NCBI RefSeq assembly: GCF_000091665.1
Contig: NC_000909.1
Span: 1,576,838-1,608,837 of the forward strand
Reading direction: 5' to 3'
Length of the DNA stretch: 32,000 bases
DNA from: Methanocaldococcus jannaschii DSM 2661
GTDB lineage: Archaea; AGJL01; Methanococci; Methanococcales; Methanocaldococcaceae
Positions 6,325-29,520 of the stretch are shown here, piece after piece. The translations under genes were made by a program, and so were the position numbers. Below the pieces are notes generated by a model. It was not told where the DNA came from, ran no database searches, and saw only the letters and a list, made by a program, of their open reading frames with translations. Numbering within the stretch: the stretch's first letter is position 1; each line of letters begins with the position of its first letter.

Positions 6325-7449
6325 ATGAAATTCTTCAATAGAGAAAAGGAAATTAATAAAATCCTATCTATTATTGAAGGAGAACCAAATAATATTTATT
6401 TTATCTATGGTTCTTTAAACAGTGGAAAATCAACTCTAATGAGGGAAATAGTAGTTAATAGATTAGACATATCTAAGTATATTCCGTTTTTTATTGATTT
6501 TAGGACAAGGAATATTTTAAACGTTGATAATTTTATTGAATGTTTATTTGAAGTGGATGAAAAATCAGAAATAGACGATTTTAGGGAATATGCCAAATCA
6601 TTAGCTGATTTGTTGGTTAAAGGTAGTGAAGAGATTAGCAAATACTATTTGGGCATGCCCATTAAAATACCAAAACCATTTTTTGATAAGATTTTTAATA
6701 AAAAGGATAAATCAGCGGATGTTTATCAATATATAGAATATTTATTTGCAAAATTAAACGAAAAAGGTAAAAAACCAATTTTAATATTTGATGAGTTGCA
6801 AATGATTAAAGAGATAACTTTAAACGGAAATAGGAAGTTATTATGGAGTTTATTCCAATTCTTAGTTGCCTTAACTAAAGTCCAACATTTATGCCATGTT
6901 TTCTGCTTAAGTTCTGATAGTTTATTTATTGAATATGTTTATAAGACTGGAGAATTAGAGGGAAGAGCTGATTATATTTTAGTGGATGACTTTGACAAAC
7001 AAACGGCTTTAAAGTTTATAGATTTTTTAGCTAAAGAAATTTTAAATAAAAAACTCCCTAAGGATGAAAAAGAGTTGATATATAGTTATGTAGGGGGAAA
7101 ACCAGTTTTGATAATAAAAGTTATTGATAAGTTAAGATATGAAAATTTAAATGATATTTTGGACTTTATGCTTAAAGATGCCACTCAAAAGTTGAAGTAT
7201 TTCTTAAATGACTTGGATTATATAAAGCCAAAGGTTGAAGTTGGAGATGAAGTTATTGAACTTAAAAAAGAAGATATTGTTAAAGCATTAAAATTATTTA
7301 AGGATAGTTATGAAATTAGTGATAGTGAAGTAGCAAAGCCAATTTATGTGTATTTAGTTAAGAAAAATATATTATTTTTAAATCCTATTGAAGGAATTTT
7401 AAAACCGCAGAGCTTTTTAATCTGGAATGCTATAAAGAGATTATTGTAA
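6325..7449 (+). CDS. P-loop NTPase of the archaeal ATPase family (Arch_ATPase/ATPase_2-like)
   Basis: Walker [10 protein letters not shown], Walker [18 protein letters not shown] upstream, 374 aa. Confidence 0.75.
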
Positions 7450-7450
7450 A

Positions 7451-7630
7451 TAAAATTACACCTCCAAGCGTAAGCGAAGAGGTGTTAGTGGGTATCGCAG
7501 GACTTTCACAGAAATAAAATTCTATGACGAATAAAGATGCCTTTGGCATCAAAATTCCTTATATGTATAAGAGCTGTGAAAATCCTGTACCAATAGGGCG
7601 AAGCCCTATGGCTGTGAAGGCTATAAAAAG
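7451..7630 (+). repeat. GC-rich two-hairpin intergenic element (copy S) carrying a nested insertion
   Basis: Hairpin 1 is ACACCTC (7458-7464) / GAGGTGT (7479-7485) with apical AGC-GTAA-GCG. Hairpin 2 is ATAGGGC (7593-7599)-GAA-GCCCTAT (7603-7609). Tail CTGTGAAGGCTAT (7612-7624). It is collinear with the reverse complement of 29332-29440 once 7496-7588 is removed. Confidence 0.6.
7496..7588. repeat. nested 93-nt palindromic (MITE-like) insertion inside copy S
   Basis: Inverted ends CAGGACTTTCACAG (7498-7511) and CTGTGAAAATCCTG (7574-7587) pair at 13 of 14 positions. Central hairpin GATGCC-TTT-GGCATC (7536-7550). Removing 7496-7588 restores GGGTATACCAATAGGGCG exactly as in copy R. Confidence 0.5.
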
Positions 7631-7691
7631 AATATTGTAGGTTTTTCGCAAAAGGCAATAGAATATTAAAAAAATATATCGTGTGATTTAT

Positions 7692-23149: not shown

Positions 23150-23170
23150 CAACCTTTTACTAAAAGGTTG
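23150..23170. repeat. hairpin repeat copy A (CAACCTTTT-ACT-AAAAGGTTG), abutting the Toprim start codon
   Basis: 9-bp perfect stem with a 3-nt loop. On the mRNA (minus) strand the 3' arm AAAAGGUUG is followed by G-AUG. Confidence 0.75.
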
Positions 23171-23177
23171 ATCAAAA

Positions 23178-23217
23178 CGGATGCACTACCTCGCTACGCT
23201 CGGCAGTGCCTCTTAAT
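23178..23217 (-). repeat. truncated copy (T) of the two-hairpin element: hairpin-1 module only
   Basis: GGATGCA-CTACC-TCGCTACGCTC-GGCAG-TGCCTCTTAA aligns with 29398-29435 (GGATGCA-TCATC-TCGCTACGCTC-GATGA-TGCCTCTTAA). Flanks and loop are identical and the stem differs by paired substitutions. Confidence 0.6.
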
Positions 23218-29284: not shown

Positions 29285-29331
29285 AAAAATCCCTAATAAT
29301 TTTTAATTATAAAGATAATAAAATTTAAAGA

Positions 29332-29440
29332 TTTAATAAATAACGCCTCTCAGACAGTGCCGGAACCATAGGGCTACCGCCCTATTGGTATACCCAGGGA
29401 TGCATCATCTCGCTACGCTCGATGATGCCTCTTAAAATTT
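29332..29440 (-). repeat. two-hairpin GC-rich element (copy R), complete, immediately 3' of the C/D sRNA
   Basis: Minus-strand sense: TTAAGAG-[GCATCATC-GAGCGTAGCGA-GATGATGC]-ATCCCTGGGTAT-[ACCAATAGGGC-GGTA-GCCCTATGG]-TTCCGGCACTGTCTGAGAGGCGTTATTTATTAAA. The last 31 nt repeat the sRNA 3' end. Confidence 0.65.
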
Positions 29441-29453
29441 TTTAATAAATAAT

Positions 29454-29520
29454 ACCTCTCAGACAGTGCCGATTTCTTCATCCCAAAAAGGTCAGTGGGG
29501 GTAACTTTCATCATCGAGGT
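29454..29520 (-). ncRNA. C/D box sRNA (2'-O-methylation guide), dual 12-nt guides
   Basis: Minus strand: ACCUC-G-AUGAUGA(C)-AAGUUACCCCCA-CUGA(D')-CCUUUUUGGG-AUGAAGA(C')-AAUCGGCACUGU-CUGA(D)-GAGGU. Perfect C and D boxes, both spacers exactly 12 nt, and a 5-bp terminal stem ACCUC/GAGGU. Confidence 0.8.

Follow-up and report, generated by a model that had tools for sequence, protein, structure and literature searches.

In the chromosome of Methanocaldococcus jannaschii DSM 2661, two nearly identical 31-nt segments enclose a pair of hairpins beside a gene for a C/D box sRNA, and one of the two segments is the 3' end of that gene. The locus (positions 29332-29519 of the window, that is, of the 32,000-nt stretch C1:1576838-1608837 that was analysed) raises the question of whether the repeated segment belongs to the hairpin element or to the target into which the element was inserted. 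The original prediction offered two readings, namely that a dispersed, SINE-like repeat family arose from or recombined with the 3' end of a C/D sRNA, or that the element integrates site-specifically at sRNA 3' ends and duplicates them.

The sRNA gene and the repeated segment

A repeat search recovered the direct repeat pair at 29332-29362 and 29441-29471, with a start-to-start spacing of 109 nt and identity at 29 of 31 positions (94%). The pair scored 25, a value well above that of the controls: of 570 flank pairs taken at shifted positions and scored identically, only 4 reached 18 or more. A chance origin is therefore unlikely. The 78 nt between the repeats (29363-29440) form two hairpins, with folding z-scores of -4.2 and -5.3 on the two strands that none of 200 shuffled sequences equalled. 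Both the 29/31 repeat and the 78-nt two-hairpin core described in the original prediction were thus borne out. On the basis of its fold and of family matches within the genome, the core was classified as an MJRE-type modular hairpin element, read on the plus strand. It comprises an anchor hairpin, A, of the type CCATAGGGC-N4-GCCCTATGG (approximately 29365-29389), a second hairpin, B, with the structure GCATCATC-N11-GATGATGC (approximately 29397-29433), and a terminus consisting of CCTCTTA followed by a short AT tail.

The C/D box sRNA lies on the minus strand at 29455-29519 and was delineated by boxes read from the sequence and by sub-threshold matches to C/D families in Rfam. Its 5' half contains the stem strand CCUC (29519-29516), one unpaired G, the C box AUGAUGA (29514-29508), the D' guide (29507-29496) and the D' box CUGA (29495-29492). 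Its 3' half contains the C' box AUGAAGA (29481-29475), the D guide (29474-29463), the D box CUGA (29462-29459) and the stem strand GAGG (29458-29455). The spacing of the four boxes (AUGAUGA-12 nt-CUGA-10 nt-AUGAAGA-12 nt-CUGA) within a CCUC/GAGG closing stem is that of a C/D box RNA. At gathering thresholds, Rfam gave no matches in the window. In a relaxed search all sub-threshold matches over the sRNA stretch were to C/D sRNA families, the best being sR12 (E = 0.0033; 24.4 bits versus the 38 required), which has the D-guide core CGGCACUGU in common with the window sRNA. Full-length sub-threshold matches were to sR12, snoPyro_CD and sR1 (E = 0.003-0.006), and no M. jannaschii-specific sRNA family was seen among the relaxed matches.

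Both guides have complementarity to 23S rRNA. The D' guide forms a perfect 10-nt complement of positions 2012-2021, and the core of the D guide pairs with positions 1959-1968 through nine Watson-Crick pairs and one G-U pair. These two predicted targets, which are positioned according to the box D+5 rule, are approximately 50 nt apart and are present in both rRNA operons; the sRNA is thus a predicted guide for 23S rRNA methylation. The sRNA region was matched in 15 of 16 congeners, and the genome in which no match was seen (G012) has a contig that ends short of the site. The boxes, the Rfam matches, the pairing with 23S rRNA and the conservation together indicate that the sRNA is real and that the right 31-mer is its true 3' end plus a 14-nt trailer. 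A second candidate C/D sRNA with an identical CCUCG...GAGG terminal stem was found elsewhere in the chromosome (C1:441360-441412).

The right 31-mer (29441-29471, minus strand) is unbroken with the sRNA and is regarded as the functional copy. As had been predicted, the minus-strand sequence of the repeated segment takes in the final 9 nt of the D guide (29471-29463), then the D box, the 3' half of the terminal stem and the trailer, that is, the last 17 nt of the sRNA and 14 nt of AT-rich sequence. The left 31-mer (29332-29362, minus strand) repeats the same parts as an orphan, with no C box read in the adjoining sequence, and is located 47 nt upstream of the start (29284) of a gene encoding an ABC-class ATPase (PF09818). 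The two copies differ by two adjacent substitutions (CG for TA); the functional copy keeps AAUACC, a spelling common to G002 and to both copies in G011, and the orphan reads AACGCC. A candidate chimeric C/D RNA, combining the orphan tail with GAUGAUG of hairpin B, was dropped, its sole basis being an sR44 match of 13.8 bits (E = 0.49).

Orthologous sites and the repeat family

The comparison with relatives that the original prediction had called for, a search for an empty orthologous site, was successful. Seven Methanocaldococcus genomes (G006, G014, G001, G002, G010, G009 and G005) contain the sRNA, one 31-mer and the flanking ATPase gene, with no hairpin core between them. A tandem duplication of the 31-mer without the hairpin core, which had been named as the finding that would point to a merely local duplication, was not seen in the relatives, which have both features or neither. 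In these empty sites, loci L003 and L005 among them, the sRNA is located approximately 30-50 nt upstream of the ATPase start codon; the corresponding window positions are 29285-29331. Since the start codon is so near the sRNA stem, the sRNA may be produced out of the ATPase transcript leader, or one promoter may serve both genes.

One relative, G011, has an element at the same junction (GAACCATAGGGC...) together with both 31-mers, hairpin 2 being largely deleted. Four of 31 positions distinguish its two copies, and three of these fall in the part derived from the guide; GUGCCG, the spelling common to all empty-site relatives, is retained there by the sRNA copy alone. All outgroup genomes in trees of the two flanking genes are empty, and M. 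jannaschii (G000), G006 and G011 form an unresolved group; a single insertion in a common ancestor of M. jannaschii and G011 is therefore possible. Alternatively, given that the closely related G006 is empty, the element may have been lost precisely by recombination between 31-nt repeats, or there may have been a second insertion at the site.

Two other insertions were observed around the sRNA in relatives. In G013 (L006:1298-1520) the sRNA trailer contains a different element of approximately 115 nt with terminal inverted repeats (ATAGTTGTGTG...CACACAACTAT), an internal hairpin and a flanking TA duplication. This element is a classical MITE, and the corresponding spot in the sister genome G014 is empty. 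In G011 (L002:1106-1501) approximately 400 nt separate the sRNA from the gene for a metallo-beta-lactamase-fold protein, compared with approximately 50 nt in M. jannaschii, and something else is inserted there.

BLAST searches with the 78-nt core and 13 other inserts identified approximately 100 merged elements in the M. jannaschii genome, 6.8 kb in total and all chromosomal, 93 of 100 having their midpoint outside ORFs. The elements are mosaics of a few hairpin modules; the seven-module scheme (A-G) derived by BLAST is rough, and hairpins B and F are perhaps confused in it. Family matches were found in 13 of 16 congeners, with 10-30 copies per genome across the genus. Suyama, Lathe and Bork reportedly described palindromic repetitive elements of M. 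jannaschii, MJRE1-3, in FEBS Lett in 2005, a work cited in PMC2229807. The abstract of that report reportedly characterizes them as short, GC-rich palindromic repeats of about 100 copies, mostly extragenic with few in genes, old and diverged, and it is not known to mention long flank duplications, polarity or a link with RNA gene ends. The present family is very probably the same, as judged by description (the same organism and multicopy, GC-rich, mostly extragenic palindromic units). In the literature searched, no account of these elements having long target duplications came to light, which is not proof of absence.

Long flank duplications are the rule for this family. A flank-repeat score of at least 14 was obtained for 38 of 95 elements, compared with 8 of 570 shifted controls, and the flank repeats of different copies are mutually unrelated sequences. 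Examples include 35 of 35 matching positions at C1:459181/459292, 33 of 33 at 904075/904192 and a 50-nt repeat at 1446256/1446377. The best flank repeats (n = 35) have a median length of 31 nt, an interquartile range of 27-37 nt and a range of 16-50 nt, one value of 60 having been set aside as over-extension into the element; the 31-nt duplication at the sRNA locus equals the family median. Approximately 60% of the copies have no clear flank repeat, either because they may be old and decayed or because their element boundaries may be imprecise.

The copy designated S (element at approximately 7449-7614) is an instance of the same arrangement. The stretch on its right (7615-7639, plus strand) had been read as a degenerate version of the sRNA tail, from which the tail was taken to be intrinsic to the family. 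That claim is refuted: this stretch matches the left flank of the copy (7424-7448, plus strand) at 21 of 24 positions, a score that none of 500 shuffles reached, and the ending "CTGTGAAGGCTAT" derives from this repeat. Among other family members, copy T (window 23151-23216, modules D+B) abuts a gene start, and no flank repeat was detected for it. An element with a 32-nt flank repeat (C1:343720-343904) is located approximately 90 nt upstream of the sole cas1 gene (343948-344748), and element matches lie within approximately 90 nt of cas1 in both G011 (C39) and G012 (C125).

Gene ends, polarity and the mode of insertion

A census with a relaxed box pattern yielded about nine convincing C/D sRNAs, including one at C1:260398 that we take, from its sequence, to be sR8. 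Only one of these, the window sRNA, has an element nearby, and integration is therefore not specific to sRNA ends. For tRNA genes the association was strong. A family element is present within 35 nt downstream of the 3' end of 8 of 36 tRNA genes, compared with 0.31 expected, and random placement, which was limited to non-ORF sequence, never gave more than three (0 of 2000 trials reached the observed number). In seven of the eight cases the element is followed by an orphan copy of the last 11-22 nt or so of the tRNA, mostly with its trailer, and six of these orphans (Sec, both Val, Cys, Ile and Gly) begin just 3' of the T loop. Empty sites with a single tRNA end were found for tRNA-Ile, tRNA-Leu and tRNA-Sec in G001, and for tRNA-Ile also in G013. 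Accordingly, of the second reading in the original prediction, the duplication on insertion is upheld by the empty and filled sites, and the specificity for sRNA ends is not. What survives is a broader version, in which elements are strongly enriched downstream of tRNA genes and duplicate tRNA 3' ends. This enrichment may stem from a preference for such targets or, should the hairpins act as 3' structures, from better retention of the elements.

Within M. jannaschii, a divergent tRNA-Sec/tRNA-Leu pair (C1:97150-97860) has an element downstream of each gene, and both of these sites are empty in G001. The element following tRNA-Sec is a composite of approximately 230 nt with at least five hairpins, after which comes the orphan copy of the tRNA-Sec 3' end.

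In the majority of simple elements, one end is formed by an anchor hairpin (A, CCATAGGGC..., or D, AACCTTTT...), and the opposite end consists of a second hairpin, then CCTCTTA, then 4-26 nt of AT-rich tail; hairpin A is present at both ends of some composite elements only. Polarity was assessed on informative copies, defined as those in which exactly one flank copy carries a gene 3' end, with a mechanical set of ORFs of at least 90 aa that used no annotation. The anchor hairpin adjoins the orphan copy in 18 of 21 such elements (p = 0.0015), among them those at the sRNA locus and at tRNA-Leu. The element is thus polar, with the anchor toward the orphan copy and the AT-tailed end toward the intact gene end. 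In several protein-gene cases the insertion point lies at most a few nucleotides from the stop codon. The junctions were also inspected for microhomology shared by element ends and target, and nothing convincing emerged beyond the recurring start of tRNA orphans after the T loop.

The 8-bp stem of hairpin B covaries through paired substitutions among 16 copies, the variants being GCATTGCC/GGCAATGC, GCACTGCC/GGCAGTGC, GCATCACC/GGTGATGC and, at the sRNA locus, GCATCATC/GATGATGC. In the two imperfect copies among these, an A.C mismatch on the anchor strand corresponds to a G.U pair on the other strand, which in the usual arrangement is the gene-sense strand. These two cases hint that hairpin B may act as a structure at the RNA level, in read-through transcripts.

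Genome searches gave no dedicated enzyme for this process. No reverse transcriptase (RVT_1) match was obtained in the M. jannaschii genome, which is 99.9% complete, under a search that gave matches in control genomes; no match to a Y1/HUH transposase (Y1_Tnp) was found in it, and it has one Cas1 gene only.

Several explanations for the locus were weighed against these results. If the family had been derived from the 3' end of a C/D sRNA, or carried such an end as an intrinsic tail, the 31-mer would be part of a SINE-like element. The left 31-mer does directly abut the element with its D box and stem half, and the variable AT-rich end tail, variable flank repeats and polarity are SINE-like traits; however, the flanks of the 99 other copies are as unlike the sRNA tail as controls are (mean 4.8 versus 5.0, maximum 9 versus 10), the flank repeat differs from copy to copy, the tail of copy S is a copy of its own flank, the sRNA tail is present in relatives that lack the element, and the genome lacks an RVT_1 match. 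This first reading of the original prediction is left unsupported, and its probability is close to nil. Site-specific integration by an integrase-like enzyme, with the 3' ends of stable RNA genes as attachment sites, would agree with the tRNA genes and the window sRNA with their duplicated ends, and with the six tRNA orphans that begin at about the same place. Nevertheless, it is improbable, as the majority of copies lie at ends or junctions of protein-coding genes, where the target sequences are unrelated, only one of about nine C/D sRNAs is occupied, the 35 flank repeats have no common motif, and elements of 60-170 nt have no integrase gene. Moreover, the duplicated sequence always matches the local gene, and the element therefore has no attachment copy of its own.

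When Cas1 inserts DNA, a target stretch as long as the repeat is duplicated. Off-target integration by the CRISPR adaptation enzyme Cas1(-Cas2) would account for the agreement of the duplications (median 31 nt, interquartile range 27-37) with the CRISPR repeat of this genome, which is 30 nt long, as well as for a duplicate-insert-duplicate structure that is the structure of a new spacer. Cas1 is present in all 14 genomes that carry the family, M. jannaschii included, and absent from two of the three family-free genomes; yet the family-free genomes are the most distant, so that this co-occurrence is confounded by phylogeny, and one of them (G004) has two Cas1 genes and no elements. Since, in addition, the spread of 16-50 nt is unlike a molecular ruler, and inserts of 60-170 nt greatly exceed the spacers of 35-45 nt implied by repeat periods of 65-75, Cas1 is a long shot. 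A larger, though still minor, share of probability goes to an origin without transposition, through errors of replication or repair (template switching, an unprocessed flap or filler DNA at a staggered break) or through recombination or gene conversion between copies. The variable duplication lengths (16-50 nt), the few extra nucleotides that vary at both junctions, the variable length of the AT tail, the mosaic shuffling of modules and the lack of an enzyme in the genome searches are all consistent with such errors. Against them stand the recurrence of the same composites at unrelated sites with clean junctions (A-C-B-D after tRNA-Ile and after tRNA-Gly), the polarity of 18 to 3 and the copy number of 10-30 per genome across the genus; this strong polarity and genus-wide copy number point to a directed process. 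Repair errors share the fill-in step with the explanation that we prefer, and the difference between the two lies mainly in the existence of a dedicated enzyme.

The preferred explanation, which we consider highly probable, is that an MJRE-type, non-autonomous hairpin element was inserted behind the C/D box sRNA and that the 31-mer is a long target duplication. The 31-mer is assigned to the target because the relatives are empty, because the flank repeats are unrelated across the family, and because the sRNA tail is unlike the flanks of other copies. The element would have entered 14 nt downstream of the conserved, 23S-targeting sRNA, and the 31 bp between two strand breaks, comprising 17 nt of the sRNA end and the trailer, would have been copied to both sides of it. 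The comparison of empty with occupied sites shows that insertion was accompanied by duplication; the breaks themselves are inferred, for the family as a whole, to lie 16-50 bp apart and to be filled in by synthesis. With the segment present on both sides, one copy leaves the sRNA its D box and terminal stem, and the second copy, now a drifting orphan, leaves the ATPase gene its former upstream sequence. A transposase with a fixed stagger is hard to reconcile with the threefold spread of lengths, the AT tail of variable length at one defined end, the few variable nucleotides at the anchor junction and the polarity, which favour a process of break-and-copy or target-primed style; insertion thus resembles a target-primed or repair-coupled process.

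On this account the sRNA is a bystander whose 3' end was copied when an element landed, and not the seed of the repeat family. An insertion without a long duplication would have cut into the sRNA D box and stem or into the ATPase leader. A duplication of approximately 30 bp across a gene end leaves both the end of the upstream gene and the leader of the downstream gene intact, which may help small elements to survive in compact genomes. The link to tRNA and sRNA gene ends provides a handle on the mechanism, as these targets are short, well defined and conserved, with empty and filled alleles among sequenced relatives. For annotation, orphan 3' fragments of tRNAs and sRNAs in these genomes are, on the same account, insertion footprints and not pseudogenes.

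Comparison with known mobile elements

The element resembles MITEs in that it is small, non-coding and multicopy, with target duplications and with empty and filled sites between relatives. MITEs have short, fixed-length duplications (2-10 bp) set by a transposase, and terminal inverted repeats that match an IS. In contrast, the duplications of the present family are 16-50 nt long with a median of 31, and the two ends of the element are unlike each other, a CCATAGG hairpin at one and CCTCTTA with an AT tail at the other. The likeness to REP/BIME sequences and REPINs consists of GC-rich hairpins, module mosaics, location at gene 3' ends and compensatory changes in stems. The difference is that the Y1 (RAYT) transposase with which REP sequences are associated was not found in the genome; in addition, REP-type insertion, an IS200/IS605-like single-strand transposition, is not known to duplicate its target.

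With SINEs and LINEs the element shares variable flank duplications, a variable A/T-rich tail at a defined end, polarity and landing sites in T-rich tracts just past genes. It differs from them in that a reverse transcriptase was not found in the genome, no internal promoter or master gene was identified, and its duplications exceed the typical SINE length. CRISPR adaptation and casposons resemble it in making a long target duplication. That duplication is of fixed length, approximately 30 bp for the CRISPR repeat and 14-15 bp for casposons, whereas the duplications of the present family vary threefold, its inserts are not spacer-sized and it has no casposon-type gene set.

To our knowledge, no described prokaryotic transposition pathway makes duplications so long, variable and polar. 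In conclusion, and only tentatively, as a possibility that falls well short of an expectation, we suggest that these elements, with no transposase, reverse transcriptase or Y1 enzyme to account for them, spread in a manner not yet described for prokaryotic mobile DNA, a polar and possibly target-primed or repair-coupled process that would act just past gene 3' ends, preferring markedly those of tRNA genes and, at this locus, taking that of an sRNA gene, and would copy 16-50 bp of the gene end in such a way that both neighbouring genes remain intact.
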